Part shown: in pieces, positions 32,262 through 52,371 of the stretch
Layout of the letters: every line of letters begins with the position of its first letter
Numbering within the stretch: the first letter of the stretch is position 1
Source of the DNA: an uncultured Gemmatimonadales bacterium
GTDB taxonomy: Bacteria > Gemmatimonadota > Gemmatimonadetes > Gemmatimonadales > GWC2-71-9
DNA: 64,000 bases
Assembly: GCA_963730185.1 (NCBI GenBank)
Contig: CAVSQW010000008.1
Coordinates: forward strand, 288,001 to 352,000
Reading direction: 5' to 3'
Notes under the pieces: model-generated
What the model saw: only the letters and a program-made list of their open reading frames with translations
Told to the model about the DNA's origin: nothing
Databases searched by the model: none
Made by a program: the position numbers and the translations under genes

Positions 32262-32263
32262 GG

Positions 32264-35743: not shown

Positions 35744-36709
35744 CTACCGCGCCGGCGGCGGGGTGGGCCGAGCCCCGCCCTCCGGGGTCGCGATCCGGCG
35801 GGTGTCCGGTTCCGCGCTCGCCGCCGGCTGTCCGAGCATTGTCGACCCGCCCACCAGGCCCATCAGCGACGGCGCGTTCAGGGAATCCGCCAACCCCGAG
35901 GGGACCACCATCAGCGAGCCGCGCTTGACGATGCTCTCGTAGAGCATGTTCATGGCCCGGAGGGTCATCGCCTCGGGATGGTCGCGGTAGGCGGCGGCCG
36001 CCTCGACGAACTTGTGGGCGATCTCCGTCTCGGCGGTGCCCAGGATGATCCGGGCCTGGCGCTCCCGCTCGGCCTGTGCCTGGCGGGACATCGCGTCCTC
36101 GAGTGCGGCGGGGATGATCACGTCGCGGATCTCGACCGACTGCACGTCGATCCCCCAGTTCGCCATCTTGTTTTCGAGCGCCACCCGGAGCCCGTGGCCC
36201 AGCTCCACCCGGGACTGGATCAGCTCGGCCAGGTCGTGCTTGCCGATGGCGTCCCGGAGGGCGGTCTGGGCCGAGAGGATCACGGCCTCGTCGTAGTCCT
36301 GGACTTCGAGGGCGGCCCGTTCCGCGTCGCGGACGATCCAGAACGCGATCGCATCGACGTTGACCGGGACGGTGTCCCGGGTCAGGCAGGACTCGGCCCC
36401 GAACGCCGCGGTCCGGATCCGGGTGTCGACGTGATACGAGACCCGGTCGAGGATCGGGAAGACGGCGAAGTAGCCGGGGCCTCGGAGCCCCCGATAGCGG
36501 CCCAGCCGGAGCAGGACGGCCCGCTCCCACTGGTCGGTGTACTTGATCGAGGCCATCAGGAAGAGCCCGACGGCGAGCCCGCCCGCAGCCACGATCGGTG
36601 CGGGCAGGCCGAGCAAGTAGAGCCCGCCCGCGACCCCGGCGCCCCCGATCAGCCCCGCCGCGATCGCGGCAAAGGAGTATCGGGTGTCGGTCGGCGTGTG
36701 TTTGGTCAT
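35744..36709 (-). CDS. SPFH/band 7 (slipin/stomatin) family protein
   Basis: N-terminal TM, WERAVLLRLG, LTRDTVPVNVDA, AQTALRDAIG, AMSRQAQAERERQARII. Confidence 0.93.
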   Translation of the reverse strand: MTKHTPTDTRYSFAAIAAGLIGGAGVAGGLYLLGLPAPIVAAGGLAVGLFLMASIKYTDQWERAVLLRLGRYRGLRGPGYFAVFPILDRVSYHVDTRIRTAAFGAESCLTRDTVPVNVDAIAFWIVRDAERAALEVQDYDEAVILSAQTALRDAIGKHDLAELIQSRVELGHGLRVALENKMANWGIDVQSVEIRDVIIPAALEDAMSRQAQAERERQARIILGTAETEIAHKFVEAAAAYRDHPEAMTLRAMNMLYESIVKRGSLMVVPSGLADSLNAPSLMGLVGGSTMLGQPAASAEPDTRRIATPEGGARPTPPPAR

Positions 36710-36754: not shown

Positions 36755-38041
36755 CTAACGAGTTCGGGCCGGCCGGATCGACTCGCGCCGGGGCCGGGTG
36801 CTCCGGGGCCGGATCAGGTGCGAGGGCGGCGGTTCCCGGTCAGGCACGCGGGCCAGCCCCATCTCGATCGGGAGCGCCACCTTCACCAGGACGGTCAGGA
36901 CCAGGAGCCCCAACGCCCAGACGCCGGCGGTGACCCCGAGCTCCGCCGGCGAGGGCCGGTACTCGACGATCTCGCCGAGGGGCGATGGGATGAAGCCGGG
37001 GATCACCAGCCCGATACCTTTCTCGATCCAGATCCCGATGAAGAGGAGCACGCACGCCGGGAGGAGCAGCCGCGGATTGCGCCGAATCGGGTGCACGGTC
37101 AACGCGAGCGTGGCGCCCAGGTTGAGCCCGATCCCGGTCCAGATCCAGGGCCGGAGCGCCGAGTGTCCGTCCAGGCCGAAGAAGAGGTACCAGGCGCTCA
37201 GTCCGTGGTGGGTCGGCCAGTAGAACTCATAGAAGAGCTCCGAGCCGAGCATCACCAGGTTGATCTGGGCGGCCACGGTGGTGATCAGGGCCAGCTTGGC
37301 AAAGGCGCCCTCGCCGATCTGATAGCCGGTCTGGCGCTGAATGACCGAGAGCAGGACGATCACGAACGCGGGCCCGGCCGTGAAGGCCGAGGCGAGGAAA
37401 CGGGGGCCTAGAAGGGCGGTGTTCCAGAAGGGCCGGGCCGGGAGCCCCGCGAGGAGGAACGCGGTCACCAGGTGAATGCTCACCGCCCACATGACCGCCA
37501 GGTACATCCAGGGCAGGTATTTGCGCTTCTCCGGCTTCCGGCCGCCGAAGTGGCTGTAGAGGATGTAGAACGGGATCGCCAGGTTGAGGGCGAGATACCC
37601 GTTCAGCACGATCACGTCCCAGGAAAGCATCGAGCGGGGCCAGTTGAGGAACCCGAGGCCCGGGACGAGATGCCAGCTGGCCAGCGGGTTACCGATGTCG
37701 ACCACCACGAAGAGCAGGCACATCACCAGGGCCGAGACCGCCACGCCTTCCGCGATCAGCACCGCCCGGCCGAAATCCACGTCCTCGAAGACGTAGGCCG
37801 GGAGGACCAGCATCATTGCCGCGGCCGCGAGGCCGACCAGGAAGGTGAAGTTCGAGATGTAGAGTCCCCAGCTCACGTGATCGTTCATGCCCGTCACGCT
37901 CAAGCCGTAGCGGAGCTGGAGGGAGTAGCAGTAGGCGCCGGTCAGGATGATCGCGGTCAGGACGCCCATCCAGACGTGGTAGCGGCGTCCCCCGGTGGTG
38001 GCGGAGCGCAGCGCGGTGGTCACGAAGGCCTTGAGATACAC
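36755..38041 (-). CDS. NrfD/PsrC/DsrP-family membrane anchor (quinone-interacting)
   Basis: WGLYISNFTFLVGLAAA, DIGNP, SMLSWD, HLVTAFL, RPFWNT; about 10 TM segments. Confidence 0.9.
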   Translation of the reverse strand: MYLKAFVTTALRSATTGGRRYHVWMGVLTAIILTGAYCYSLQLRYGLSVTGMNDHVSWGLYISNFTFLVGLAAAAMMLVLPAYVFEDVDFGRAVLIAEGVAVSALVMCLLFVVVDIGNPLASWHLVPGLGFLNWPRSMLSWDVIVLNGYLALNLAIPFYILYSHFGGRKPEKRKYLPWMYLAVMWAVSIHLVTAFLLAGLPARPFWNTALLGPRFLASAFTAGPAFVIVLLSVIQRQTGYQIGEGAFAKLALITTVAAQINLVMLGSELFYEFYWPTHHGLSAWYLFFGLDGHSALRPWIWTGIGLNLGATLALTVHPIRRNPRLLLPACVLLFIGIWIEKGIGLVIPGFIPSPLGEIVEYRPSPAELGVTAGVWALGLLVLTVLVKVALPIEMGLARVPDREPPPSHLIRPRSTRPRRESIRPARTR

Positions 38042-38048
38042 GGTCGCC

Positions 38049-39026
38049 TCAGTCGGAGAAGTACCAGAACCGCGGTTCCGTGCCGAGATCTTCCTTCAAT
38101 CGGAAGATCTTCTTGTTCGCCAGCACCCAACGAATCTCCGAATCGGGGTCGAGCAGGTTGCCGAACACCCGGGCCCCGGTGGGGCAGGCTTCGGCGCACG
38201 CCGGGAGCCGCCCTTGCCGGGTGCGGTGGATGCAGAAGGTGCATTTCTCCACCACGCCCATCTTCCGGGCCCGGTTGCCGAGGTAGTGCTGATTGGTGTT
38301 CACCTCGTTCACGGGCACCTTGGGCTCGGCCCAGTTGAAGCGCCGGGCCCAATAGGGGCAGGCCGCCATGCAGTACCGGCACCCGATGCACCAGTCGTAG
38401 TCGATCACCACGATGCCGTCCGGCTCCTGCCAGGTGGCCCCCACCGGGCAGACCCGGGTGCAGGGCGGATCGGCGCATTGGAAGCACTGGGTTCCGAGAT
38501 AGAAGTGCCCTTCGGCGGGGACCTCGTGCTGGAAGGTCGCGTCGGCGTGATCGAGGTTCACCTCGCCCTCGGACATCTCGAAGATCCGGATGTACATGGT
38601 GTCGGCGTCGCGATCGAGGTTGTTCTCGTTGATGCAGGCCTCGACGCAGTTCCGGAACCCCTGGCACTTCGAGATGTTGAAGGCGTAGCCGAAGAGCACG
38701 CCGGGTTGAGCTTCGGTCGACTGGATTCGGACCTCGAGCCCCTCCCGCAGCTTGGCCAAGCGCTCCAGCCGGGCGATGGTGTCGGTCCGCTCGCCCTCGG
38801 TCATGAACCGGTAGTTGCCCTTGATGTACTCCTGCCAGGCCAGCCGCTTGATCTCCCGCTCTTCGGGTGGGCCGGCGGCCAGGGGCCGGCAGGCGTTGAG
38901 GGCCTGGGCCCCGGCGGCGAGCCCGCCCGCCAGCAGGGACAAAGCCCGGCGCCGGTCGACCGGCTTCTCGAGCAGGGTGCTCGGCTCGGGGGGCGTGCCG
39001 CCCCGATCGGCTCGGTCGGTGCTCAT
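38049..39026 (-). CDS. NrfC/DsrO-like 4Fe-4S dicluster protein with twin-arginine-like leader
   Basis: DRRRALSL leader; CQGFRNCVEAC, CFQCADPPCTRVCP, CIGCRYCMAACP, CTFC...ACAEACP. Confidence 0.9.
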   Translation of the reverse strand: MSTDRADRGGTPPEPSTLLEKPVDRRRALSLLAGGLAAGAQALNACRPLAAGPPEEREIKRLAWQEYIKGNYRFMTEGERTDTIARLERLAKLREGLEVRIQSTEAQPGVLFGYAFNISKCQGFRNCVEACINENNLDRDADTMYIRIFEMSEGEVNLDHADATFQHEVPAEGHFYLGTQCFQCADPPCTRVCPVGATWQEPDGIVVIDYDWCIGCRYCMAACPYWARRFNWAEPKVPVNEVNTNQHYLGNRARKMGVVEKCTFCIHRTRQGRLPACAEACPTGARVFGNLLDPDSEIRWVLANKKIFRLKEDLGTEPRFWYFSD

Positions 39027-39736
39027 GGCTCGGGCCTTTGGCGTGGCTCCAGCTCCGGCGCTCGGAAGGGAATCCGAGGCTCGACGGCCGGCGAATGGGG
39101 GTTGTGGCAGTCACTGCAGCCCATCACCACCCGCCGGCCCTGCCAGCCGTCGAGCCGCTTGCCGTGGGCACCGTGGGCCCAGGCCCGAACCTGCGCGAAG
39201 TGGCACTGGGCGCAGAGGCGGTAGGCGTGGTCCAGCGGCGGCCGCTCGCCGTTGAGCAGAGCCAACCGCTCGACGTTCTCGCGGGAGTGGCAGGTGGAGC
39301 ACACCGCACCGGTCGCCTTGGGGTGGACCGGCTGGATGTTCTGGTGGGCGTCGGGTACCCGCTTGGCGGCCATGGCCAATCGAGTGCCGGCGTGGCACGA
39401 GCTACAGGGGTACTGGGTCAAGGCCGGCGATTGCCGGAGTGTGATCGGGAGGGTGATGGTGCCGAACCGCCGGGCGTGTCCCGCCCGGGCCTCGGCGCTC
39501 CGGAGCGCGACCTCGAACGGACGCCCGACGTAGGTCGGCCCGAGGTTCACGGGCTCGGAGGCCACCGTGTGGAGGGCCCCCGGCTCCCGGGTGGCGTAGC
39601 GGCCGGTATCGACGGCCATCGTGTCGGGCCCGAGGGCCGGCTCGGCCGGGACCTCGTTCGGGGTCCGGCCGCTCCGAGAGCAGCCAACGGTCAGGAGGGC
39701 CAGTCCGGTCCAGGCGGCCCGGTGAAGCATCGTCAT
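39023..39736 (-). CDS. Tetraheme cytochrome c, probable lipoprotein
   Basis: LTVGC lipobox-like sequence; CSSCH, CSTCH, CAQCH, CSDCH. Start at MTMLHR. Confidence 0.85.
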   Translation of the reverse strand: MTMLHRAAWTGLALLTVGCSRSGRTPNEVPAEPALGPDTMAVDTGRYATREPGALHTVASEPVNLGPTYVGRPFEVALRSAEARAGHARRFGTITLPITLRQSPALTQYPCSSCHAGTRLAMAAKRVPDAHQNIQPVHPKATGAVCSTCHSRENVERLALLNGERPPLDHAYRLCAQCHFAQVRAWAHGAHGKRLDGWQGRRVVMGCSDCHNPHSPAVEPRIPFRAPELEPRQRPEP

Positions 39737-40542
39737 CGGGTGGCCTCGACCCGGTCGTCGGTGGTGGCCGGCCGGGCGAATGCCGGCGGATCGGCACTGA
39801 TCGCCACGTGACAGTCCCGGCAGGCCGCCCGGTCGGGATGGGTCGTCCGGATCTCCTGCACCGCGGCCGGCCCGGCGTGACAGGCGAGACAGTTGCCCCG
39901 GATCTGGAGGTCGTGCGGAATCCACGGCGGGTTCTCTCCCGGGGTGATCGGTTGGAGCGCCGGCCAGACCGTCGTGTTCCACTCGGACGGCGGGTTGGCG
40001 CGAGGATTATTGGGGTCGTGGCACTGCTTGCAGATGGTGTTGGGGTCGATGCTCGGGAGCGTGACGCCGGTGATGCCGTCGACGCCGACGTGGCATTGCA
40101 GGCACGGGCCCATCTGGGGGTGCGGCGTCACCGGCACGTAGGCCCCGAACCGGGGGGAGTAGCCGCCGCGCTCGTGACAGGTGGTGCAGGCGCCGCTTCG
40201 AAACTCTTCGCCGGTCAGACCGTGGGGAATCTGGGGCGGCGCCCCGGGGTAGGCGCGGCGGGTCCGGTAGATGTGAAGCGTGCGCGGCTTGGCGGGCCGG
40301 CGGGCGACGTCAAACTTCCAGATCGCGAGGGTCTTGGGGCCGGTGCGAAAGACGTCGGCCTCACTGGTGATCGGGTGCTCGGGCGGGGTGAGGAGGGCCA
40401 CCGCCGTGTCAGGCTCGCTCGGGGGCCGGGCCGCGAGGGCCCGCTGCGCGAAGATCACCCCGGCGGCCGCGGCGGTTGCGGCGGATCCGAGCATCGCCAG
40501 GCCGAAGAGCACGCCGCCGGTGGTCCAGCCCCGGACGCTCAC
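39733..40542 (-). CDS. Pentaheme NapB-like cytochrome c (internally duplicated NapB module)
   Basis: GAPPQIPH-CTTCH-CLQCH, CKQCH, then PPWIPH-CLACH-CRDCH; N-terminal hydrophobic segment. GTGA overlap with the upstream gene. Confidence 0.82.
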   Translation of the reverse strand: MSVRGWTTGGVLFGLAMLGSAATAAAAGVIFAQRALAARPPSEPDTAVALLTPPEHPITSEADVFRTGPKTLAIWKFDVARRPAKPRTLHIYRTRRAYPGAPPQIPHGLTGEEFRSGACTTCHERGGYSPRFGAYVPVTPHPQMGPCLQCHVGVDGITGVTLPSIDPNTICKQCHDPNNPRANPPSEWNTTVWPALQPITPGENPPWIPHDLQIRGNCLACHAGPAAVQEIRTTHPDRAACRDCHVAISADPPAFARPATTDDRVEATR

Positions 40543-42872
40543 CGGTTGGCCCCGGCGCCGGCCCGCTCCAGGCGGACGGCGCACTTCCGGTCGTCCGGTT
40601 GGCCGGACCAGGGATCGTGCGCCCGCCCGGTCAGGCGGTTGATCGGCTTGCCCTCGTCGAAGGTCGGGACGAAGACCTGTCCCCGGGGCGGCTGCGAGCG
40701 ATAGTCGATCCGGGCTTCGAGCTCGAGGGCGCCGCGGCGGCTCACCAGCCGGACCAGGTCGCCCCGCTGGATCTTGTGGGTGGCCGCGTCGGCCGGGTTG
40801 ATCTCGACGTAGGCGTGGGGCAGGGCCCGGTGCAGGGTCGCGATCCGCTGGGTCATCGCCCCGCCGCCCCAGTGCTCCAACACGCCGCCCGTCACCAGCC
40901 AGAGCGGGTAGGCCCGGTCGGGCGCCTCGGCCGCCGGCCGGTCCGGCCGGAGCCAGACCCAGGCCCGGTGGTCGGGATGGCCGTAGAAGTCGAAATCGCC
41001 GCGGGCCCGGTCGGCGGCGGGGTCATGGGCGGTGTGGTACCGCCACTTGGTCTCGTGACCGTCGCGGTAGGGCCAGTAGACTCCCGGCCGGCGACGGAGC
41101 TCGGCGAGCGGCGGCAGGGGACTGGGCCCGTCGGCGTGGAAGCGCTGGTACTCCTCCCAGATCTGATCGGCCAGGTGGTCGCGGTCCCAGGGAAAGAGCG
41201 ACGCCAGGCCGAGCCGCCGCCCCACCTGGATCATCAGTTCGGCGTCGCTGGTCGCGTCGCCGGGCGGATTGGTCAGCTTGGCGAAGTGCTGGACCCGGCG
41301 TTCGGGGTTGGCATAGATGCCCTCCCGTTCGATCCAGATGGCGGCCGGCAGGACCACGTCAGCCAGGTCCGTCGTCGGGGTGGGGTACGCTTCGCTGACC
41401 ACGATGAACCGGTCCGGTTGCCGGGCGGCGCGGCGGTACCGGTCCAGGTCCGGGAGGCTCAACATCGGGTTGGTGGCCTGAATCCAGAGCACCCGAAGGT
41501 CGCCCCGGTCGAGGGCGTCGAACAGACCCACCGCGGTGCCCCCCGGACGGGGGTCGATCCGGTCGGCCGGCACGCCCCAGATCCGGGCGGCCCGCTCGCG
41601 ATCCTCGGGGCGAGTGACCAGGCCCCGCGGGAGGGTATGGGTCAGCGTTCCGGCGTCGTGTGGGGCGGCCCCGCCGTTCGGCTGGCCGGTGGTGGCGAAG
41701 GCCGCGTTGCCGGGCGTGCCCATCTTGCCGGCCAGCAGGTGGATGTTGTAGAGCGCGTTGTTGGTCCAGGTGCCGCGGACGTCCTGATGGACGTTGGCGC
41801 CCCAGATCGACATCACCTTCCGGGCCGGATCGCCGTAGAGCGACGCGACCCACCGGATCGTCTCGGCCGGCATCCCGGTCAGCCGTTGGGCCCGCTCGGC
41901 GGAGTAGGTCTCGAGCCCGGCCAGGAACTCGTCCCGGCTGGCGTCGGCCGGTCGCTCGGCGACCAGGCCGCCGTCCGGGGGCTCTGGCGCGGCCTCGCTC
42001 GCCGTCTTCTTGAACGCGACGTATCGGTTCACGAAGTCCCAATCCACCCACTCGCTGGCGACCAATTCGTGGCAGACGGCCTGGGCGATCTCCAAGGCGC
42101 CGTGAGGCAGGAAGAGCGCGGCCCGGTCGGCGGCGTAGCTGGTGCGGGTCGTTCGGGTGGCGAGGTCGATGATTCGGACCGCCGGATTGTCGCGGCGGCG
42201 GGCCAGAATCCGGGAAAAGAGGACCGGATCCGTCTCGGCCAGGTTGGTGTCCCAGAGAACGATGGTGTCGGCGTGATCGATGTCGTCGTAGCAGCCGACC
42301 GCTCCGTCGAGCCCGAAGGTGCTGTCCAGTCCGGCCATCGCGCCGGCGCCGTAGAGCCGGGTGCTGGTCTCGAGATTGTTCGTGCCGAGGCCGCCTTTGA
42401 CCAGCTTGGAGGCGACGTAGGCGTCGAGGATCGTCCACTGGGCCGATCCGTACAGGCCGACGCTGTCCTTGCCGTGCTGGTCGATCGATTCCCGGATCTT
42501 CCGGGCCACGAGGTCCAGCGCCTCGCCGAGAGGAACCGGAACCAGGGCGCCGTCCCTCCTGACCAGGGCCCGGGTGATGCGATCCTCGCCCCGGAGCGCC
42601 TGGACCGAGAGATAGCCGCGGACGCAGGCCAGGCCGCCGGCGACCGGCGAGTCGAGATCGCCCTTGACGGCCGACGCGCGACCGTTGGTGAGGCCGACGA
42701 GGAGGCCACAGCCGACCCCGCAGAGCCGGCAGGGCGCCTTGTGCCACACCGTGCCGGCCAGCGCCCGCCCCTCGGCCGGGGCCATGCCCAACCCGGGAAT
42801 GCCGACCGCGCCGACCGCCGCGGACAGGGCGACGACCTCTTTGACGAACCCGCGCCGGTCGAGGGCTCTCAT
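40539..42872 (-). CDS. Tat-exported NapA-like molybdopterin oxidoreductase with divergent active site
   Basis: DRRGFVK Tat leader, KAPCRLCGVGC...CVRG Fe-S motif, GQPN, EREGIYANPERR, TGGVLEHW. The Mo-ligand region reads TRLYGAG instead of ARxCMAS. Confidence 0.85.
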   Translation of the reverse strand: MRALDRRGFVKEVVALSAAVGAVGIPGLGMAPAEGRALAGTVWHKAPCRLCGVGCGLLVGLTNGRASAVKGDLDSPVAGGLACVRGYLSVQALRGEDRITRALVRRDGALVPVPLGEALDLVARKIRESIDQHGKDSVGLYGSAQWTILDAYVASKLVKGGLGTNNLETSTRLYGAGAMAGLDSTFGLDGAVGCYDDIDHADTIVLWDTNLAETDPVLFSRILARRRDNPAVRIIDLATRTTRTSYAADRAALFLPHGALEIAQAVCHELVASEWVDWDFVNRYVAFKKTASEAAPEPPDGGLVAERPADASRDEFLAGLETYSAERAQRLTGMPAETIRWVASLYGDPARKVMSIWGANVHQDVRGTWTNNALYNIHLLAGKMGTPGNAAFATTGQPNGGAAPHDAGTLTHTLPRGLVTRPEDRERAARIWGVPADRIDPRPGGTAVGLFDALDRGDLRVLWIQATNPMLSLPDLDRYRRAARQPDRFIVVSEAYPTPTTDLADVVLPAAIWIEREGIYANPERRVQHFAKLTNPPGDATSDAELMIQVGRRLGLASLFPWDRDHLADQIWEEYQRFHADGPSPLPPLAELRRRPGVYWPYRDGHETKWRYHTAHDPAADRARGDFDFYGHPDHRAWVWLRPDRPAAEAPDRAYPLWLVTGGVLEHWGGGAMTQRIATLHRALPHAYVEINPADAATHKIQRGDLVRLVSRRGALELEARIDYRSQPPRGQVFVPTFDEGKPINRLTGRAHDPWSGQPDDRKCAVRLERAGAGANR

Positions 42873-43087
42873 GGGAGTCCGGGAACAGGAACACCTGGGC
42901 ACTGAGGCATGCCGGAGACCTCCTGATCGGTCGTTACCGCTGTTGGGTGTCCTGCAATCCGCGACCGGGGTCCGGTCTGAACGCGCTGTCGGCGCGGTGA
43001 AGGCAACGGTCGAACGAACGACCGTTTGGAACCTGCGGGGCGTTGGGTGAAGGCGTTCCTAACGAACGATGAAGCTTGGCTTAGAAG

Positions 43088-43897
43088 TCAGCCAGTCGGC
43101 TTGACGGCGGCGCGAGCCTCGGCCAGGAAGCGGTCGACGGCCGTCTGGTGGTCGCGGTACTCCGGCCGGCCAGCCGCGATCTCCTTGTCGTAGGCGGCGT
43201 TGAAGCCCTGGTAGGCCCTGGCGAGCGCGGCGTCGTTCCGGGCGAATTGGGCCAGCGCGCCCTCGATCATGAAGCCGAAGAGGTGGGTGGGATCGTTGGC
43301 GAGGATGGTGTCGGCCAGCGCCCGAGCGCCGGCCAGGTCGCCGGTGTGGAGTCGGAGCATGGCCGAGTGGTAGCGGGCGTCGGCGTCCGGGGCGGGGAGG
43401 TCCGCGTACGCCTGCATGGCCATGGGGAGGAACTGGGAGGCTTGGGCGGTGTCGCCCGACTCACTCGCTTGCATGACCCGGTTGTAGAGGCGGTCGAAGC
43501 GCTCCCGTGGGCTCATGTTGCTGATGTCGGGCGGTGCCCCGTTCCCGCCGCCGCCCAGAGCGGGGGTGGCGGCCGGGACGGGGGTGACCGCAGCCCGGGT
43601 CTGGCTCTCCTTCCGGAACAGGGCCACCAAGATGACGAGCAGGGCAGCGCCTCCGATGAGGTACGGGAAGACGGTCCCCATTGACAGGGATGGCTTGGTT
43701 GCCTGGACCGGTGCCGGCCCAGCCGGGCCGACCGGCTGGCCACAATTGGCGCAGAACTTGACCCCCGGGGTCAACGGCTGGTCGCACGAGCGGCAGCGGG
43801 CGCCGGGAAGCGGGGCGCCGCAGCTGGCGCAGAATCGGCCGGTGCTTTGGGCGCCACACTGCGAACAGGTGCTGGGGGCTGTCGGATTGGGTGACAT
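43088..43897 (-). CDS. Double zinc-ribbon membrane protein with helical (TPR-like) C-terminal domain
   Basis: CSQC, CASC, CRSC, CANC; one TM segment; Ala-rich helical C-terminus. Confidence 0.75.
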   Translation of the reverse strand: MSPNPTAPSTCSQCGAQSTGRFCASCGAPLPGARCRSCDQPLTPGVKFCANCGQPVGPAGPAPVQATKPSLSMGTVFPYLIGGAALLVILVALFRKESQTRAAVTPVPAATPALGGGGNGAPPDISNMSPRERFDRLYNRVMQASESGDTAQASQFLPMAMQAYADLPAPDADARYHSAMLRLHTGDLAGARALADTILANDPTHLFGFMIEGALAQFARNDAALARAYQGFNAAYDKEIAAGRPEYRDHQTAVDRFLAEARAAVKPTG

Positions 43898-44134
43898 CGG
43901 GATGCTCGGAAGGGGTCACGTGCCTGGGCTGCGCCAAGACAATAATGTGGTCGGGGGCGAAACCTGAAGCCGAGGTGGCGCAAAGTCTTGAAGAATTTAT
44001 GAAAGTCAGCTTAGAATCGTGCCGGATGCCTTGTAGGCGGACGGGGAGGATAGCTACTGTTGACCCGTGGTTGGATTACTTGGGTAGAAATGCGGTATGC
44101 GTTCAACCTGGTCTGGTCAACGACGGAGACGGTT

Positions 44135-45730
44135 GTGCGATTCAGAATCCCCTTTTCGAGTGGTGTCCTGGGCGTCATTTGCGCCATGACCCTGGCGGGA
44201 TGTACCTCGGAGAAGATCGTCTACCGCGATCGGGAGCCGTTCAACGTGCCGCCCGACGCGGCCTTGGGCTTCCTGGGGTACTACGACGTCTCCACCAAGC
44301 AGACCACCTGCGGCAACTGCCACAGCGAGAAGCAGGCGAGCTGGTCGACGACCAAGCACGCCTCCGCGTGGGAGGATCTGCAGGCTTCGGGGCACGCGAC
44401 GGCTTCCTGTAACGGATGCCATACGGTGTCCGAGAATGGGAACTCCGTGGGCGCGCCGGCGGGCTACAGCGTGGTCCCCGACTCGGTCTATCAAGACGTG
44501 CAGTGCGAGAACTGTCACGGACCGGGCCTGACCCACGTTCAGAATCCGACCAACACCAACCAGCCGTTGGCATCGATCTCCGCCGATACCGGCCAGGTCA
44601 ACGGCTGCGGCGGCTGCCATTCGGGCGTTCACGAGCCGTTCGTGGATCAGTGGAAGGAATCGGCCCACGGGTCGGGGCCAGGCTTCGACCACGCCGCCAC
44701 CAACGCCACCTGTGCGCCTTGCCACGAGGGCAAGGCGGCGCTGAGCCAGAAGTTTGGGGTCACGACCAACTACAAAGAGGCGAGCTCGACCGATCCGGTC
44801 CGGATCGTCTGCGCCGTCTGCCACAACCCGCACGGATCGCCCTACGACCATCAGCTTCGGGCGTCCGTCTCGACGCCGACCCGGGACAACCTCTGCATCA
44901 TGTGCCACTCCCGGCAGGGCACTCCGCCGTGGAGCACGGCCGCGGCCGGCGGCGGCACGACCCGAGGCGCTCACGGGGCCCAGGGGCTTCTGGTGCTGGG
45001 TCTCGACGTCGGGTGGATTCCGCCCAACTTCGCCTACGACCCGTCGTCGATCGTGAGCACGCACGGAACGGGCGCCAATCCGAAGCTCTGCGCCACCTGT
45101 CACGTCGCCCAGACCACGGTGACTGATCAAGCGACCGGTGCCTTCGTCTTCCAGAGCGTGGGGCACACCTTCACGGCGACGCCGTGCCTGGATGCCCAGG
45201 GCCTCCCGACCGCCACGACCGAGTGCGACGTTACCCAGCGGGACTTCACGGCCTGTGCCGCCTCCGGGTGCCACTCGAGCGATCAGACGGCTCGGGCGGC
45301 GTACATCTCCTTCGAGAGCCGGTTGGACAACCTGGTCGACCAGATCTGGAAGGACACCAACGGGAACAGCGTGATCGACGCGACCGACGGTGGCTTGATC
45401 CCGCAGATGGTGGCCCGAAACTCGGCCGCCGACCAGGCCGCGCTCGACTTCAGCAGCACCGTGACGACGACGGCCAAGGGCGCGCTCTTCAACGCGGCCC
45501 TGGCGGCCACCGACAACCGGCCCCAGTTCCTGGCCGGCACGGTCTACAACTTCACCTTCTCGACCCACATGGCCTCGGGTGGCGGTGCCCACAACCCGTT
45601 CCTGCTCGAAGCCCTGCTGACCGCGTCGATCGAGGCCCTCAAGAACGACTACGGGCTCAGCGCGCCGCCCAACCTGGACCTCAAGGTCCACGCGGTGGCG
45701 CCGAAGGGCCTGCGGATGGCGGCCCGGTAG
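44135..45730 (+). CDS. Multiheme cytochrome c lipoprotein (8 CxxCH + 1 CX4CH)
   Basis: LAGC lipobox; CGNCH, CNGCH, CENCH, CGGCH, CAPCH, CAVCH, CIMCH, CATCH, CAASGCH. GGAG upstream of GTG 44135. Confidence 0.9.
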   Translation: MRFRIPFSSGVLGVICAMTLAGCTSEKIVYRDREPFNVPPDAALGFLGYYDVSTKQTTCGNCHSEKQASWSTTKHASAWEDLQASGHATASCNGCHTVSENGNSVGAPAGYSVVPDSVYQDVQCENCHGPGLTHVQNPTNTNQPLASISADTGQVNGCGGCHSGVHEPFVDQWKESAHGSGPGFDHAATNATCAPCHEGKAALSQKFGVTTNYKEASSTDPVRIVCAVCHNPHGSPYDHQLRASVSTPTRDNLCIMCHSRQGTPPWSTAAAGGGTTRGAHGAQGLLVLGLDVGWIPPNFAYDPSSIVSTHGTGANPKLCATCHVAQTTVTDQATGAFVFQSVGHTFTATPCLDAQGLPTATTECDVTQRDFTACAASGCHSSDQTARAAYISFESRLDNLVDQIWKDTNGNSVIDATDGGLIPQMVARNSAADQAALDFSSTVTTTAKGALFNAALAATDNRPQFLAGTVYNFTFSTHMASGGGAHNPFLLEALLTASIEALKNDYGLSAPPNLDLKVHAVAPKGLRMAAR

Positions 45731-45789: not shown

Positions 45790-47754
45790 GTGACTCTTCT
45801 CGGCTTCCCCCAGCTGACCGACACGGTGCGGGCGGCGTCGGCGGTTGCCGATACCACCCCCCCGACTCTGGTCGAGTCCCCCCTCCCCGGGGGCGTGTCC
45901 GAGGTCGTTCGCTACTTCTTCAATCTGCCGCAGTGGTTCCAGATTGCCGGCTTCTTTGCCGGCCTGATCGTCGCGGCGCTGATCTTGATCTATCTCTGGA
46001 AGCGCCGGGCGCCGATCGTCTACTGGATCAAGACCCGGGAGCGCGGCCTCCAGCTGGGGCTTGCCGGCGGCCTGTTCGGCCTCATCCTGCTCGCCAGCGG
46101 CGCCGGGATGGTCAGCTGGAACTACATGCAGCACGACAACGGGTTCTGCACCGGATGCCACGTCATGAACGTGCCGTTCGGGAAGTTCGAGGTCCGGGCC
46201 GGGAAGCACGACTCGCTGCAGTGCCACAACTGCCATCAGCAGTCGATCTACGCCAGCATGCGGCAGCTCTACCTCTGGGTGGCGGAGCGTCCGGAGGAGA
46301 TCGGGAGCCACGCCAAGGTGCCGAACCGGGTCTGCGCCGGGTGTCACGTCACCGGCGAGGGCAAGGAGAAGTGGAAGAACATCGCCGCGACGGCGGGCCA
46401 CCGGGTGCACCTCGAGTCCGACTCGACGGCGCTCAAGAACGTCCAGTGCGTGACCTGCCACGGCTACGAGGTGCACCTCTTCGTGCCGGTCGACCGGACC
46501 TGTATGCAGTCGGGCTGTCACGAGAACTTGAAGATCGGTCTGGGTAAGATGGCGGGGCAGACCGACCTCCACTGCGTCACCTGTCACCAGTTCACCGCGG
46601 ACGTGCCTCGGCTGGCGACCTACGACTCGGCCGCGAAGACCCTGGTCCCCACCAACAAGCAGTGTCTCAGCTGCCACGAGATGCAGAAGGTCCTGACCGA
46701 GTTCGATCCGGCCAAGGATCCGCACAACGGGGCCTGCGGCACGTGCCACAACCCGCACACCCAGACCAAGGCGGCCGACGCGGCGAAGCGCTGCGCGACC
46801 TCGGGCTGCCACGACAACTGGGGCGAGGTGCCGTTCCACGTGGGGGCGACCCATCGGCAGGTGGTGCAGGACTGCCTGCTCTGCCACAATCCGCACCAGG
46901 CCCGGCTCGACGCCAGCGACTGCGAGGGCTGCCACACCAAGGTGCGGGCCCGGGGACGGTTCAGACCGCCGGTACCGTTCGACACCTTGCGGGCCCTCAA
47001 GGGCGGGCGGGGGTCGCCGCCCGGCGCCTCAGCGGGTGGCCCCGTCACGGGCTTCATCGGGGGGGGCGCCTGGTGGGAGCCCCCCCTTTCGTTGTCCGAT
47101 CCGCCCCCGGTCCGGGCCGTGCCCGCACCGGCAGCCGATTCGTTCCCGCACCAACGTCACAAGAGCCTCGCCTGCCTGACCTGTCACAAGCCAACCGCCA
47201 CCCACGGACGCCTGAACTTCGAGACTCCCCGCGGGTGTCAGATCTGCCACCACGTGGTCCAGCGTGACAAGCCGTGTACCGTCTGCCACCAGCAGTCCGA
47301 GCTGGACCCGCCGCACGTCGAGACGGTGACGATCACCGTGCCCGACCGGGCGCCGAGGGCCCGGCCGGTGACATTCACGCACCGAGGCCCGCACGAGAAG
47401 CTCGCCTGCCGTGACTGCCACAAAACCGAGGTCACCAACCTGCCGGCGGCCGACGTCGTCACCTGCCAGGCGTGCCACGACCGACACCACGGCAACCCGA
47501 CGACCTGCTCCACCTGTCACACCGCCACCGATCTCCAAGCGGTCCATGCCCGACCGATCGAGGCCCATCGGGCCTGTGACGAATGCCACACGGCCCGGAT
47601 CGTCGCCGAGCTGGTTCCCACCCGGAACCTCTGCGTGACCTGTCACCGGACCAAGGCGGATCACTATCCCGCCAAACAGTGCACCGTGTGTCACTTCCTC
47701 TCGGATCCGGAGAGCTATCGGGTCCACCTGCGCAAAGCGAGCAAGGCCGGGTGA
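45790..47754 (+). CDS. Membrane-anchored NapC/NirT-like cytochrome extended to 20 heme motifs
   Basis: Two TM helices, NYMQHDNGFCTGCHVM (NapC/NrfH-like FCxxCHxM), 18 CxxCH + 2 CX4CH, central Pro/Gly linker. Confidence 0.9.
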   Translation: MTLLGFPQLTDTVRAASAVADTTPPTLVESPLPGGVSEVVRYFFNLPQWFQIAGFFAGLIVAALILIYLWKRRAPIVYWIKTRERGLQLGLAGGLFGLILLASGAGMVSWNYMQHDNGFCTGCHVMNVPFGKFEVRAGKHDSLQCHNCHQQSIYASMRQLYLWVAERPEEIGSHAKVPNRVCAGCHVTGEGKEKWKNIAATAGHRVHLESDSTALKNVQCVTCHGYEVHLFVPVDRTCMQSGCHENLKIGLGKMAGQTDLHCVTCHQFTADVPRLATYDSAAKTLVPTNKQCLSCHEMQKVLTEFDPAKDPHNGACGTCHNPHTQTKAADAAKRCATSGCHDNWGEVPFHVGATHRQVVQDCLLCHNPHQARLDASDCEGCHTKVRARGRFRPPVPFDTLRALKGGRGSPPGASAGGPVTGFIGGGAWWEPPLSLSDPPPVRAVPAPAADSFPHQRHKSLACLTCHKPTATHGRLNFETPRGCQICHHVVQRDKPCTVCHQQSELDPPHVETVTITVPDRAPRARPVTFTHRGPHEKLACRDCHKTEVTNLPAADVVTCQACHDRHHGNPTTCSTCHTATDLQAVHARPIEAHRACDECHTARIVAELVPTRNLCVTCHRTKADHYPAKQCTVCHFLSDPESYRVHLRKASKAG

Positions 47755-49247
47755 TCGGGCGCGCGAGCGGACTCGTCCTTCTGGTGGCCGGTGTCGCCGC
47801 CCTGCCGGTCGCGGCCCAAGGGTACCGCCTCCGGCTGGACAGCCGCTACCAGAGCGTGAGCTTTCGCGGGGTCCGGGCCGACAGCATTCTGGCGGTGGAC
47901 GCCGTGACCCGGGCGGGGCAGGGATACTTCACGACCGACGGCTTCGCGGTCTCGTGCGCTCAGGGAGCGGTCTACTGCTACTTCCTCCGGCCTGGCGACA
48001 AGCTCCGCGGGAACCCGGTGAGCGGCACCGGCGACCTCACGCTCTGGGGCTTCGGGGTCACGGGTCTCACGTTCCATGCCTCGGCCCGGTTCGCGCGGGA
48101 CCTGAGCAGCCAGGTGGACTACCCCCTGACCGAGCCGGCCGTGACCCTGCTCGAGGGGTATCTCGACTACAACAGCCGCCACCTGGTGGGTCGAGCCGGG
48201 CGCCAGATCGTCACCGGCCGGCTCGGATACCAGGGCTTCGACGGCGCGCTCGGGACGTTGCGCGACCCGGCCCGAGGCATCGAGGTGACGGGCTACGCGG
48301 GTTGGGGGCTGGCTCGGGGTACCGCGCTCCCGGTCACCAGCCCGGCCCTCAATCCGTTGGACGACTTCCAACCGCGGAACCGGCAGCTGCTCTTCGGCGC
48401 CCAGCTGGGCGTCCGGCATGCCTGGGTGGATTTCCGCGCCGACTATCGGCGGGAGATCGACCCGGTGCCGGACTACCTGGTCTCGGAACGGGCCTCCGCG
48501 AGCCTCTCTCTTTCGCCGCTTCCCGGGTGGCGGTTGACCGGCGGCGGCGACTATGACTTCGCCAACGGCTGGTGGGGCAGCGCCGATGCGACGCTCGGCT
48601 ATGCCGGCAAGCGCTTCTATGCGACCGCGACCGCCAGGCGCTACCGCCCGTTCTTCGATCTCTGGACCATCTGGGGGGCGTTCTCGCCGGTGCCCTATCA
48701 TGCCGTGTCCGGCGCCGCCGCCGTCCAGCCGGTCGAGCACCTCTGGGTTCGGGCTAGCGGAGAGCGGTACTGGTTCGAGGCTTCGGAGGCCTCGACGGCG
48801 CTCGTCTCGGTCGAGGATCGCGGGTGGCGGGGATCGGTGGGTGCGTCGTTGACGCTCGCCGACCGCTGGACGTTCGACGCCGGGCTCCGGGGAGAGTTCG
48901 GCCCGGGCGCCGCCTCCCGAACGGTCGAGGGCTCGGTCACCTGGCAGGCGCGGGACGGCGTGAGCCTGTCCACCCAGGTCGCGACTTTGGCCCGGCCGCT
49001 GGAGTTCCGCTACGACCAGAGCAACCTCGACTGGTATTCGGTCGGCGCGGACGTCCGGCTCAACGGCCAGTGGCGCTGGGTGTCCGACCTGGCTTGGGTG
49101 TCCGAGAGACGCAATCGTCCCGACGCGGCCGCCATCGACTGGGGGCAGTTCCGGGCCAGCACCCGGATCGTGCTCACCCTCGGATCGAGCGCCGATCGCC
49201 TCGCGTTGCCGCCGGGCCGCCCGCGGCCGAAGGGAGCGACGCCATGA
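47751..49247 (+). CDS. Predicted outer-membrane beta-barrel (porin of a porin-cytochrome complex)
   Basis: Signal peptide (LPVAA-Q), many alternating aromatic/hydrophobic strands, GRAGRQ and GFDGA motifs. Translationally coupled between two multiheme genes. Confidence 0.75.
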   Translation: MIGRASGLVLLVAGVAALPVAAQGYRLRLDSRYQSVSFRGVRADSILAVDAVTRAGQGYFTTDGFAVSCAQGAVYCYFLRPGDKLRGNPVSGTGDLTLWGFGVTGLTFHASARFARDLSSQVDYPLTEPAVTLLEGYLDYNSRHLVGRAGRQIVTGRLGYQGFDGALGTLRDPARGIEVTGYAGWGLARGTALPVTSPALNPLDDFQPRNRQLLFGAQLGVRHAWVDFRADYRREIDPVPDYLVSERASASLSLSPLPGWRLTGGGDYDFANGWWGSADATLGYAGKRFYATATARRYRPFFDLWTIWGAFSPVPYHAVSGAAAVQPVEHLWVRASGERYWFEASEASTALVSVEDRGWRGSVGASLTLADRWTFDAGLRGEFGPGAASRTVEGSVTWQARDGVSLSTQVATLARPLEFRYDQSNLDWYSVGADVRLNGQWRWVSDLAWVSERRNRPDAAAIDWGQFRASTRIVLTLGSSADRLALPPGRPRPKGATP

Positions 49248-50725
49248 GGGCGCTTCGGATCGGTCTCGCGCTCGGTCTGGGGTGGGCCTTGCTCGGCGGA
49301 GCGGCCAGGGCCGATGCTCAGCGTCCGGACACCGCGCGGTGGGATCACGCCCGCCACGCCAAGGTGTTCCCCAACTGTCTGATCTGTCACGCGGGCGCCG
49401 CCGAGGCAGGGGCGCCGATGTTCCCGGCTCCGGTTGCCTGCCAGGCCTGCCACGATGGGACCGTCGAGCCGCGGATCAGCTGGGAGCCCCGGGTTGGGCC
49501 CCGGCCCAGCAACCTGACCTTCGATCACGCCCGCCACCGGGCCGCGTTCGCCCGCGGCGCCAGTCGCCATCCGGGCCGCGAAGCCCCCCAGTGCGTCACC
49601 TGCCACATCCCGGAGGGGGCCGGTTGGATGCGGGTCCAGCGCGCCGTGGTGCCGCGCTGTCTCGATTGCCACGAGGTGCGGACCGAGCACTTCGCGGCTC
49701 CGGACACGGCCTGCGCCACCTGCCACCGACCGCTGGCCGACGCGCCCAACCTGCCCGACGCGAAGATCGCGGCTCTCAAGGCGCCGCCGTCGCACCAGGC
49801 CCCGGGCTTCGTGGGGAGCGGCCCGACCAGTCACGGGCAACTCGCCCGGTCGCTGGACCGCTCGCACGGGTACGAGGTGGCGCGGAGCTGTGCCACCTGT
49901 CACGCCCGGGATTTCTGTCTCGACTGTCACGTCAACGCGCCAGAGACCGAGGCGATCCAGGATCTGAAGCCCGATCCGCGTTCGCTCCTGATCCCGGCCA
50001 AGCTCGAAGCACCGGCTTCTCATCATCGGGCCGACTTCGCCCGGAAGCACGGCTCGTTGGCGGGCAAACAGGGTGAGCGGTGCGTCGTCTGTCACACCCG
50101 CGAGAGCTGTGCGACCTGCCACGCCGGCACCCTCCCGGCGGCCGCCGCCTCGCTCGCCATGGCCGGTCCTGGCCGGGCACCCGGGGCCAAGACGGTCCGC
50201 CGGCGGCCGCGCTCGCACGGCGCCGGCTGGGACGAGCACCATGCCTCGCTGGCCGACGCCGCCCCGACGACCTGCCTGAGCTGCCACGTCCGGTCCACCT
50301 GCCTCGAATGTCACCGACCGGCCGCCGGCCAGCGGAACGGGTTCCACCCCGTGGGCTTCCTGGCTTCTCACCCGGCCGCCGCGTACAACCGCCAATCCAA
50401 CTGCGCCGACTGCCACAATCAGGCCCAGTTCTGCGCGACCTGTCATGCTCAGGCCGGGCTCAGCGCTCGGGTGGGGCTCGGGACGGCCGAGCGCTACCAC
50501 GACGCCAAGGGCGTCTTCATTCTCGGCCACGGTCAGGCCGCCAGGCAGAACCTCGAGACCTGCGTCAGCTGCCACGTGGAGCGCGATTGCCTCAAGTGCC
50601 ACGCGGCCCTGGGCGGGCGGCGGTTCAACCCGCACGGCCCGGGCTTCGACCCGGAGCGGCTCCGCAAGAAGAACCCGGAGATGTGCATCGCCTGCCACGG
50701 CCTGGCGATACCGGGTAGTGAGTAG
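49244..50725 (+). CDS. Periplasmic 16-heme cytochrome c
   Basis: Signal peptide; 16 CxxCH; N-terminal cytochrome c3/c7-like (W/F)DHARH segments and five C-terminal diheme repeats. Confidence 0.9.
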   Translation: MRALRIGLALGLGWALLGGAARADAQRPDTARWDHARHAKVFPNCLICHAGAAEAGAPMFPAPVACQACHDGTVEPRISWEPRVGPRPSNLTFDHARHRAAFARGASRHPGREAPQCVTCHIPEGAGWMRVQRAVVPRCLDCHEVRTEHFAAPDTACATCHRPLADAPNLPDAKIAALKAPPSHQAPGFVGSGPTSHGQLARSLDRSHGYEVARSCATCHARDFCLDCHVNAPETEAIQDLKPDPRSLLIPAKLEAPASHHRADFARKHGSLAGKQGERCVVCHTRESCATCHAGTLPAAAASLAMAGPGRAPGAKTVRRRPRSHGAGWDEHHASLADAAPTTCLSCHVRSTCLECHRPAAGQRNGFHPVGFLASHPAAAYNRQSNCADCHNQAQFCATCHAQAGLSARVGLGTAERYHDAKGVFILGHGQAARQNLETCVSCHVERDCLKCHAALGGRRFNPHGPGFDPERLRKKNPEMCIACHGLAIPGSE

Positions 50726-50932: not shown

Positions 50933-51394
50933 ATGTGCGAGATCGCGGTCAACGGCATCGTCCGGGAACTGCCGGCGACGGTGTGGCTTTCCCTCCTCGA
51001 CTTCCTTCGTAACCACCTGGGGCTCACCGGCGCCAAGCCGGGGTGCCGCGAGGGGGAGTGCGGCGCCTGCACCGTGCTCGTCGACGGGCGTCCGGTGCTC
51101 TCCTGCCTGACCCTCGCCCGATCGGCGGAGGGCGCCAGCGTGACGACCATCGAAGGGCTGGCCGACGGCGAGCGGCTTCACCCCGTCCAGCGCGCCTTCA
51201 TCGAGCACGACGCGTTGCAGTGCGGCTACTGCACTCCGGGACAGATCCTCTCGGCGGTGGCCTGCATCGCGGCCGGTCACGCGGATTCCGACGAGCGCGT
51301 CCGCGAGTGGATGAGCGGCAACCTCTGCCGCTGCGCCGCGTATCCCCAGATCGTGGCCGCGGTCCGGGCCGCCGGCGCGGAGCTCGGGTCGTGA
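50933..51394 (+). CDS. 2Fe-2S subunit of a xanthine dehydrogenase-family oxidoreductase (PaoA/CoxS-like)
   Basis: GCREGECGACTV, QCGYCTPGQ, GNLCRC. Confidence 0.93.
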   Translation: MCEIAVNGIVRELPATVWLSLLDFLRNHLGLTGAKPGCREGECGACTVLVDGRPVLSCLTLARSAEGASVTTIEGLADGERLHPVQRAFIEHDALQCGYCTPGQILSAVACIAAGHADSDERVREWMSGNLCRCAAYPQIVAAVRAAGAELGS

Positions 51395-52371
51395 CCGATC
51401 TGGCCTACCTTCGTCCCACTTCCGTCGCGGAGGCGGTGGCGCTCACCGCCGTCGACGCGACGGCTCGGTTCCTGGCCGGAGGGACGGAGCTGATTCCGGG
51501 GATGCGCCAGGGCTTGGCCCGTCCGGCGACCCTGGTCGACATCACCCGCTTGCCGCTCCGGGGCGTCGAGCGGCGCGACGGCGGGCTGCGGATCGGGGCC
51601 CTGACCCGGCTGGTCGACGTCGCCGCGGACCGCGAGGTCCGGCGGACCGCCCCGGTCTTGGCGCGCGCCATCGAGCTGGCCGCGAGCCCTCAGCTCCGCC
51701 AGATGGCCACCCTGGGTGGCAACCTGCTTCAGGAAACCCGGTGTCCCGTTTTTCGAGCTGGGCCGGGCCTACCCTGCAACCGGCGGGTTCCGGGGAGCGG
51801 CTGCCCGGTCCGAGCCGGCAACCAACGGTCCGCGGCGATTCTCGGAGCGACCGAGGCGTGTGTCGCCACCCATCCGTCCGATCCCGCCGTGGCGCTGGTT
51901 GCCCTCGATGCCCGGGTCACGGTCCTGAGCCCCGCCGGCGAGCGGGAGACGACCGTCGAAGCCCTCCTCGCCCGGCCGCCGGAGCAGGGCGTTCGGCTGG
52001 CGCCGGGAGAGCTGATCACCGCCGTCGACCTGCCCCTGACCGAGCCGGGCTGGGCGTCCGACTACGTCAAGGTTCGGGATCGCGCGTCCTTCGATTTTGC
52101 CCTCGTCTCCGCCGCCGCCTCGCTCCGAATGGCCGGCGGGCGGATCAGAGCGGTCCGGCTGGTGCTCGGCGGCGTGGCGCCCTGGCCCTGGCGATGCCGG
52201 GTGGCCGAGGGGCGGCTCGCCGAGAGCCGCCTGGACCGGGGCGCGCTGCGAGCGGCGTTCGACGCCGAGCTGGCCGCCGCGGCTCCCCTGCCGGGCAACG
52301 AGTTCAAGGTCCAGCTGGCCGCCGAGGCTGGGGTCCGGGCGTTGGTGAGCGCGGCGGGAGGGGCCGGGTGA
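51391..52371 (+). CDS. FAD-binding subunit (PaoB/YagS-like)
   Basis: AGGTEL, ASPQLRQMATLGGNLLQ, four-Cys insert, HPSD, KVRDRASFDFALVS. Confidence 0.92.
   Translation: MTDLAYLRPTSVAEAVALTAVDATARFLAGGTELIPGMRQGLARPATLVDITRLPLRGVERRDGGLRIGALTRLVDVAADREVRRTAPVLARAIELAASPQLRQMATLGGNLLQETRCPVFRAGPGLPCNRRVPGSGCPVRAGNQRSAAILGATEACVATHPSDPAVALVALDARVTVLSPAGERETTVEALLARPPEQGVRLAPGELITAVDLPLTEPGWASDYVKVRDRASFDFALVSAAASLRMAGGRIRAVRLVLGGVAPWPWRCRVAEGRLAESRLDRGALRAAFDAELAAAAPLPGNEFKVQLAAEAGVRALVSAAGGAG

Follow-up and report, generated by a model that had tools for sequence, protein, structure and literature searches.

An open reading frame (ORF) on the reverse strand of a 64,000-nucleotide stretch of DNA from an uncultured soil bacterium of the Gemmatimonadales (contig CAVSQW010000008.1, positions 288,001 to 352,000; this whole stretch is hereafter the window) encodes a descendant of the periplasmic nitrate reductase NapA: an iron-sulphur (Fe-S) protein, predicted to be exported by the twin-arginine translocation (Tat) pathway, that has neither the Cys which ligates molybdenum (Mo) nor the Arg which binds nitrate. 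The gene can safely be said not to encode a canonical nitrate reductase, since none of the residues with a known contact to Mo or nitrate has been retained. We tentatively favour, with confidence a little short of even, the reading that the protein no longer reduces nitrate and instead serves a quinol-linked complex of multihaem cytochromes as a redox relay or scaffold, the complex being predicted to link up with an outer-membrane porin-cytochrome conduit.

The ORF (40539-42902, minus strand) runs through 787 codons without interruption. Residues are numbered here from the GTG at 42902, an alternative start; the ATG at 42872 (residue 11, MRALDRRGFVK) is the likelier start of the gene, in agreement with a 777-aa database twin (P0002) that is identical to the window protein. 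The best match in the PDB was E. coli NapA (2NYA, E=2e-171 in phmmer), NapA being ahead by a wide margin, and all three Pfam domains, Fe4S4, molybdopterin and dinucleotide-binding (PF04879, PF00384 and PF01568), were matched; the NCBIfam models for NapA scored under their curated cut-offs (NF010055/TIGR01706, 674 bits against 904 and 663 bits against 930). An AlphaFold2 (AF2) model, built from a 98-sequence alignment with a predicted local distance difference test score (pLDDT) of 92.4, gave 3ML1, 2NYA, 1OGY and 2NAP as leading Foldseek matches at template modelling (TM) scores of 0.87-0.95, a superposition that carries no information on cofactor content. An initial annotation of this DNA, made from the letters alone, had described an altered active site in an otherwise intact NapA-like gene. 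The strings that it quoted (GTNNLETSTRLYGAGAMAG, SIWGANVHQ, GQPNGGAAPHDAG and LACVRGY) are all in the translation, and so are the twin-arginine leader (DRRGFVK) and the four Fe-S cysteines, C58, C61, C65 and C93 (C-x2-C-x3-C...C).

We mapped the active-site residues by alignment (phmmer/HMMER to 2NYA) combined with the contact lists of a review. In the mature numbering of E. coli NapA, Tyr184 falls on the Mo-ligating Cys143, exactly where the initial annotation had placed it, Gly185 falls on Met144 and His415 on Arg382, and the window segment WGANVHQ aligns with WTMGFNQ. Arg382, which is Arg354 in the D. desulfuricans enzyme, lies above the Mo site and is the proposed nitrate binder (PMC13223375). 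This position is Arg in 100% of the 62 Cys-containing (Cys-type) sequences of our alignment and His in 91% of the clade that lacks the ligand (Cys-less, described below), a basal Cys-less lineage carrying A or D where the others carry His415. The conserved residues that hydrogen-bond the pterin are Gly213, Asn215 and Glu218 together with Arg720, Val721, His724, Trp725 and His726 (E. coli UniProt numbering; PMC13223375). Through the 2NYA alignment, the window protein keeps five of these eight (Asn215, Glu218, Val721, His724 and Trp725) and has lost three, Gly213 having become Asp, Arg720 Gly and His726 Gly. Across the Cys-less clade the Arg720 position is Ala, Pro or Gly, and the His726 position is Gly in 139 of 139 members. 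In addition, Arg95 of the window protein (CVRG) occupies the site of the Lys that forms a bridge from the Fe-S cluster to the proximal pterin.

These changes belong to a whole clade. A word-indexed search listed 120 homologues at 63-73% identity, while an exhaustive search of 50%-identity representatives returned one full-length representative cluster for the Cys-less group, the next full-length relatives among those representatives (42-43% identity) carrying RLCMASA and GQPSACGT(A/V)REVG, which are the canonical motifs. Our alignment comprised 201 distinct sequences, after removal of those shorter than 700 aa, of representatives outside 700-950 aa and of three exact duplicates. At the ligand column, Cys stands in 62 of the 201 and is missing from the other 139, which carry Tyr (122), His (11), Ala (3) or Phe (3). 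Close homologues that retain the CMAS motif, which the initial annotation had singled out as the sign of a decaying copy or an assembly error, were looked for and not seen: Cys occurs in 0 of the 139 members of the query's clade and in 62 of the 62 other Nap-like sequences.

A FastTree phylogeny of 117 rows united all 55 sampled Cys-less rows in a single branch (stem length 0.25, support 100). This branch is nested among four Cys-type sequences of Gemmatimonadota (L026, L029, L034 and L037), which themselves lie inside a wider Cys-type lineage. Cys-less sequences were still monophyletic (SH-aLRT 100, stem 0.24) in an IQ-TREE quick search (LG+G4, 56 rows) from which the 31 columns that discriminate the two types had been removed, and together with the Cys-type rows from Gemmatimonadota they formed a clade (SH-aLRT 100). 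The Cys-less clade is descended from a Cys-type NapA within Gemmatimonadota. The four Cys-type sisters have the canonical residue at all 31 discriminating columns, and the most basal Cys-less members already carry most of the changes, so that no intermediates are seen. Members with Tyr, His, Ala or Phe are spread across several subclades, position 184 switching several times on the tree, and the nearest relative of the window protein has His there. The ratio of non-synonymous to synonymous substitution rates (dN/dS, Nei-Gojobori) had a median of 0.209 over 198 Cys-less pairs (dS 0.05-1.5; dN/dS 0.14-0.35) and of 0.171 over 172 Cys-type pairs, both being rough values with dS partly saturated. 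The Cys-less clade is under purifying selection. The initial annotation had proposed that the changes are coordinated and not due to a single-base error, and a distinct clade of 139 members, all without the Cys and all evolving under such selection, bears this out.

Carriage of the gene is patchy, because a full-length match (at least 58% identity) was found in 13 of 200 high-quality genomes of the same order and in none of four genomes of the same genus. All 28 loci of the clade that came from species-representative genomes are from metagenome-assembled genomes (MAGs), 24 of them having been checked at the ligand position, and two of the 28 were binned as Acidimicrobiaceae and Zixiibacteriota. 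One Gemmatimonadaceae MAG holds two full copies of the Cys-less operon (L009 and L025), each with its cytochrome and barrel cluster. Two other matches (G076:C56:49771-52143 and G114:C51:8654-11035), full-length and 45-46% identical, come from two genomes of the same family; they contain a single in-frame TGA and may be selenocysteine-containing Nap/Fdh-like enzymes.

Conservation was then compared column by column. Of 141 columns that are at least 95% conserved in the 62 Cys-type sequences, 31 are not kept in the Cys-less clade. The baseline was a set of 95 columns conserved to 90% or more among 14 outgroup Nap-like representatives. Of these, the Cys-type sister clade, with 48 sequences, keeps 88 and loses 3, whereas the Cys-less clade, with 139, loses 17, the mean pairwise identity being 0.73 in either group. 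Fourteen of the losses are extra and found in the Cys-less clade only (N88, C184, M185, P201, G218, H225, D269, G370, S403, A410, R415, R673, H679 and K772). Several positions, namely 184, 269, 369, 370, 412, 673 and 772, vary within the clade (184 Y/H/A/F; 269 E/A/G/T/Q; 369 T/A/R/P/S; 370 N/D/E/S/Q; 673 A/P/G/V/T; 772 S/G/T/R/V). Where such positions adjoin the former Mo site, their variability suggests that constraint was relaxed, and not that a new specificity arose. Another comparison used 70 columns conserved to 85% or more among 94 Cys-type Nap/Nas/Fdh-like representatives. A sample of 40 sequences of the clade keeps 52 of them, and nine of the 18 changed ones (N88, C184, G218, H225, D269, G370, G412, R673 and K772) are altered in the Cys-less clade only and not in its Cys-type sister.

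The two types differ further in napD, the gene for a dedicated chaperone. In Cys-type loci, napA is preceded by a small ORF that Pfam identifies as NapD, and a profile built from 35 such upstream ORFs matched 46 of the 48 Cys-type loci of full length as well as 3 partial loci. This profile matched none of the 20 full-length Cys-less loci, of which one (L024) has no upstream flank. Neither this profile nor the Pfam model found napD in the window or in a six-frame translation of the 82%-complete genome, and neither napD nor another chaperone gene was found in the conserved neighbourhood of the Cys-less loci.

The operon context of the gene (Table 1) is in part that of its Cys-type relatives, since genes for NapA, a NapB-like cytochrome, a tetrahaem cytochrome, an NrfC-like and a DsrP-like protein are common to both. 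The pentahaem, weakly NapB-like cytochrome, whose ORF overlaps the stop of the napA-like gene and is of uncertain start, is presumed to be the direct redox partner of the NapA-like protein; its orthologue adjoins napA in Cys-type and Cys-less clades alike. The NapB-like cytochrome has four CxxCH motifs in 37 of 38 Cys-type loci and five in 8 of 8 Cys-less loci. The closest Cys-type sister (L029, from Gemmatimonadales), however, already has the extra middle haem, which makes this haem older than the loss of the Cys. The band-7 gene at the operon end is present in 13 of 20 Cys-less loci and in none of the 48 Cys-type loci. In one Cys-less locus (L012) the pair of NrfC-like and NrfD-like genes is tandemly duplicated downstream of the napA-like gene. 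In L009 and L011, homologues of the zinc-ribbon/TPR protein (38% identity) are encoded at the opposite end of the operon.

Table 1. Features of the NapA-like locus and the divergent cytochrome cluster (window positions)
Feature	Position	Strand	Details
SPFH/band-7 (stomatin/HflK-like) gene, operon end	35744..36709	-	PF01145
NrfD-family integral membrane quinone-interacting subunit, DsrP-like	36755..38041	-	PF03916 E=1.4e-32; NF045798 DsrP 399.8 bits (cut-off 350)
Tat-exported 4x[4Fe-4S]-type ferredoxin subunit, NrfC/DsrO-like	38049..39026	-	NF045797 DsrO 193.5 bits (cut-off 200); Fer4_11
Tetrahaem c-type cytochrome, lipoprotein-type leader (LLTVGC)	39023..39736	-	
Pentahaem c-type cytochrome, weak NapB-like stretch	39733..40584	-	5 CxxCH; PF03892 E=0.0035; PDB 1ogy_B E=0.004
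NapA-derived molybdopterin-fold protein	40539..42872	-	777 aa from ATG; Tat leader; 4Fe-4S motif; PF04879, PF00384, PF01568
Tyr184 codon	42351..42353	-	position of Mo-ligating Cys of NapA; clade Y122, H11, A3, F3 (n=139)
Zinc-ribbon/TPR protein	43088..43897	-	directly upstream of napA-like gene; membership of system uncertain
Octahaem lipoprotein cytochrome, divergently transcribed	44090..45730	+	8 CxxCH; weak DmsE/MtrA-family TIGR03508 42.7 bits (cut-off 192)
18-haem cytochrome, N-terminal membrane helix, weak NrfH-like start	45790..47754	+	18 CxxCH; TIGR03153 31.9 bits, below cut-off
Predicted outer-membrane beta-barrel	47583..49247	+	start uncertain; residues from 47742 modelled
16-haem c-type cytochrome with signal peptide	49244..50725	+	

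On the opposite strand lies a cluster encoding octahaem, 18-haem, beta-barrel and 16-haem proteins. This cluster accompanies 16 of 20 Cys-less loci and none of the 48 Cys-type loci, and the four Cys-less loci without it have a short upstream flank (none in L024, 431 bases in L013, 635 in L030 and 1901 in L014). ORFs for 16-haem cytochromes hold the same place in related loci. The barrel ORF ending at 49247 has no match in Pfam or NCBIfam. Its AF2 model, obtained from a 9-sequence alignment with pLDDT 75, is all-beta with about 24 long strands, and the Foldseek matches listed for it are all beta-barrel membrane proteins, nearly all from bacterial outer membranes; the best, MtrB of the Shewanella Mtr complex (6r2q_B, E=1.7e-8), is a likeness at the level of fold class only (TM 0.44). 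From the conserved adjacency, the NapA-like operon is predicted to be linked to this outer-membrane cluster.

On the favoured reading, the Mo site would be incapable of catalysis, its cofactor being missing, inactive or of structural use only, and the protein would be retained since the complex needs it, as alternative complex III needs ActB and Qrc needs QrcB. The DsrP/NrfC-like module would carry electrons between the quinone pool and the cytochromes, and the barrel would take them further; the flow could be in either direction. We lean to loss of catalysis because positions that would line an active site vary among close relatives, because columns common to Nap, Nas and Fdh, enzymes with different substrates, are changed here, because napD is missing, and because the architecture parallels that of the cofactor-less QrcB and ActB, as these are described in PMC6303296. 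The initial annotation had left several roles open, and of these the variable positions beside the former Mo site and the missing napD make us lean to a non-catalytic one over an enzyme with a new substrate or with no ligand. With slightly more reserve, we propose that a working molybdoenzyme was recently domesticated into a non-catalytic or chemically repurposed module for extracellular electron transfer, its Cys-type sister in the same phylum being still catalytic, and that this module gives entry, at the inner membrane and in the periplasm, to a porin-cytochrome respiration of soil Gemmatimonadota that has yet to be described.

Several observations weigh against this loss of function, and on the sequence evidence the case for absence of a Mo/W-pterin cofactor is mixed. 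As judged from conserved columns, the window protein is far better conserved than the known cofactor-less relatives. Two proteins of its own genome served as controls: a formate dehydrogenase, FdhA (988 aa; TIGR01591 734 bits, cut-off 666), representing a genuine enzyme, and ActB, a 997-aa MopB-ferredoxin fusion flanked by pentahaem and NrfD-like genes. The number of Nap-conserved columns still kept, out of 95, is 74 for the window protein, 68 for FdhA and 44 for ActB, the alignment of ActB, which was joined with mafft --add, being approximate. A point in favour of the loss comes from 11 chosen cofactor-proximal positions that NapA and FdhA have in common: 5 of them are kept in the window protein and 3 in ActB, and these two proteins share Arg at the bridging-Lys site and Gly at the His726 site. 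Across the Cys-less clade, 110 of the 141 Cys-type-conserved columns are unchanged in at least 90% of members, and long domain-III motifs such as YPTPTTD.ADVVLPAA.W.EREG are kept. These motifs presumably bind the guanine dinucleotides, by homology to FdhH. The bridging Lys, although Arg in the window protein, is kept in 93% of the 40-sequence clade sample and in 115 of the 120 motif-bearing homologues listed. Replacements have also become newly fixed in the clade (A154, S180, D218, D225, G410, D416 and G679), which suggests a remodelled site under a new constraint, beyond mere abandonment. The genome itself carries mobA-mobB-moeA, which make molybdopterin guanine dinucleotide (MGD), and we found no genome that carries the Cys-less gene yet lacks MGD synthesis. 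In a look for genomes where the Cys-less protein would be the sole candidate bis-MGD enzyme, the MobA model TIGR02665 gave matches below its cut-off in 179 of 201 sampled genomes; the window's genome has FdhA besides mobA-mobB-moeA, and the best candidate genus (G083, G165 and G183) has a TtrA-like enzyme, MoaC and MoeA. Finally, the absence of napD is not decisive, arsenite oxidase not being known to have a dedicated chaperone.

Several of these observations speak for an alternative that we consider possible, if somewhat doubtful, namely that the protein is a ligand-less Mo- or W-bis(pyranopterin guanine dinucleotide) (bisPGD) enzyme with a rebuilt pocket, acting on a substrate other than nitrate and exchanging electrons with the quinone pool and the outer-membrane cytochromes. 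The ligand position in arsenite oxidase is Ala, and the cofactor scaffold of the Cys-less clade is largely kept: 71 of the 95 baseline columns are retained in addition to those of the Cys-type set, and the Gln of TGQP is present together with the bridging Lys. The newly fixed residues include several of the pocket (D218, D225, D416 and G679, with H415 in 91%), all the changes fall together on one stem branch, dN/dS is near that of Cys-type NapA (0.21 and 0.17), the AF2 model superposes on NapA and the genome makes MGD. Against such an enzyme, however, the residues that would lie directly over the metal vary freely among close relatives (four types at 184 and at least five at 369 and at 370), and the basal lineage has A or D in place of His415. 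Three pterin hydrogen-bonding residues are gone, the Arg720 and Lys772 positions are variable, and the columns that remain constant across Nap, Nas and Fdh, whose substrates differ, are altered. The conserved neighbourhood also offers it no napD or other chaperone gene.

A nitrate reductase with Tyr (or His) as an unusual Mo ligand is highly improbable, even though the overall fold is that of NapA, the electron-donor operon is the same as in the Cys-type sister, and the 82%-complete genome yielded neither NarG nor a canonical NapA. Neither Ala nor Phe can act as a metal ligand, and each occupies the ligand position in three otherwise conserved members. An obligatory Tyr ligand is therefore unlikely, since Tyr, His, Ala and Phe interchange at position 184, and we rejected the suggestion of the initial annotation that Tyr might serve as a ligand. 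Replacements have also befallen the Arg that binds nitrate, the Met next to the ligand position, a second Met of the active site (equivalent to Met308 in the D. desulfuricans enzyme) and the Glu of the DEP motif. Even the conservative Cys-to-Asp variant of C. jejuni NapA reduces chlorate and perchlorate much more slowly, according to PMC12769810, and the NCBIfam NapA scores of the window protein lie far under the cut-offs. That the gene is a decaying pseudogene or a product of assembly or sequencing error, for which its loss of catalytic residues and nothing beyond would speak, has a negligible probability and is refuted by the open 787-codon frame, the identical database twin, the 139 aligned Cys-less members with their mean pairwise identity of 0.73, dN/dS of 0.14-0.35 over 198 pairs and conserved synteny.

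How the proposed relay or scaffold subunit relates to characterized systems can be seen from three comparisons. The closest is the Cys-type NapA lineage, which has the layout napD-napA-tetrahaem NapB-like-tetrahaem-NrfC-like-DsrP-like and occurs in Thermodesulfobacteriota, Bacteroidota, Acidobacteriota, Rokubacteria and some Gemmatimonadota. The Cys-less clade resembles it in sequence (50-57% identity), fold, Tat leader, Fe-S motif and four downstream partner genes, but is without the Mo-ligand Cys, the nitrate-binding Arg, three pterin contacts and napD, and adds the band-7 gene and the neighbouring porin-multihaem cluster. The partner set common to both types, with NrfC/DsrP-like proteins and not NapC or NapGH, falls outside the four nap operon types listed in a 2026 review (PMC13223375), and the layout is absent from the displayed part of Table 1 of a review of the NrfD family (PMC8076601).

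The second comparison is with QrcB and ActB, which according to PMC6303296 are molybdopterin-fold subunits with no catalytic ligand, accompanied by an NrfC-like Fe-S protein, a membrane subunit of the DsrP/ActC/QrcD type and a penta- or hexahaem cytochrome. The window operon likewise joins an NrfC-like Fe-S protein, an NrfD/DsrP-type membrane protein and a multihaem cytochrome. Unlike a true QrcB, however, the window protein has no close sequence relation to that family (NF041783, 52 bits against a cut-off of 440), and the trees place it as a NapA derivative. Compared with ActB and QrcB, the Cys-less clade is much younger and closer to a working enzyme (74 of 95 Nap columns in the window protein, 44 in ActB); in contrast to ActB, the window protein is not fused to its Fe-S partner, and its loss of cofactor is putative. 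The genome's own ActB belongs to a complete-looking alternative complex III operon outside the window (L089, G000:C8:448243-455893), with genes for a pentahaem ActA-like protein, the 997-aa ActB-like fusion, an NrfD-like ActC, a monohaem protein and a second membrane protein; this ActB keeps all four of its N-terminal Fe-S cysteines.

The third comparison is with the arsenite oxidase AioA, a Mo-bisPGD enzyme without a protein ligand to Mo. As in AioA, the residue at the ligand position is a non-ligating one, some members of the clade carrying Ala. The window protein is otherwise unlike AioA: TIGR02693 scores 90 bits against a cut-off of 359, AioA appears at Foldseek rank 46th or lower, all four Fe-S cysteines are kept, and the pocket residues lack the kind of conservation expected of an active site. 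Pfam scans of the neighbour proteins turned up no Rieske domain.

We found no paper describing a Cys-less NapA clade in the full-text literature, subscription journals and bioRxiv supplements lying outside the search. The clade is unmentioned, by a term search, in PMC10732223, bioRxiv 10.64898/2026.05.27.727921 and PMC11475568, and the NapA phylogeny in PMC12769810 was built from cultured organisms only. Gemmatimonadota abound in soil, and napA serves as a standard marker of nitrate-reduction potential. The expectation of the initial annotation that automated pipelines would mislabel such genes proved correct, JGI calling 55 of the 120 homologues listed 'nitrate reductase NapA' or 'nitrate reductase (cytochrome)', with generic names given to Cys-less homologues by NCBI. 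Surveys that count these genes would overstate nitrate reduction in the phylum, because 13 of the 200 genomes carry the gene and such labels are in use. The clade also presents a young, well-conserved subunit of the Mo-bisPGD type without a ligand, whose ancestral state is preserved nearby in the tree; because the sister keeps that state, the origin and retention of cofactor-less ActB and QrcB subunits become testable. If the domestication proposed above is true, the two types would form a before-and-after pair for the origin of 'dead' subunits of the ActB and QrcB type. The tight linkage to the octahaem/18-haem/barrel/16-haem cluster further points towards a way for electrons through the Gemmatimonadota envelope that has not been characterised.

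Just past the cytochrome cluster, the window encodes a [2Fe-2S] subunit (50933-51394, plus strand) and a 912-aa molybdenum-cofactor protein of the xanthine dehydrogenase family (51741-54479, plus strand); the organism therefore uses molybdenum-cofactor enzymes of another family. On the far side of the operon, a 981-aa ORF (30069-33014, minus strand) encodes a fused trehalose-6-phosphate synthase and phosphatase.

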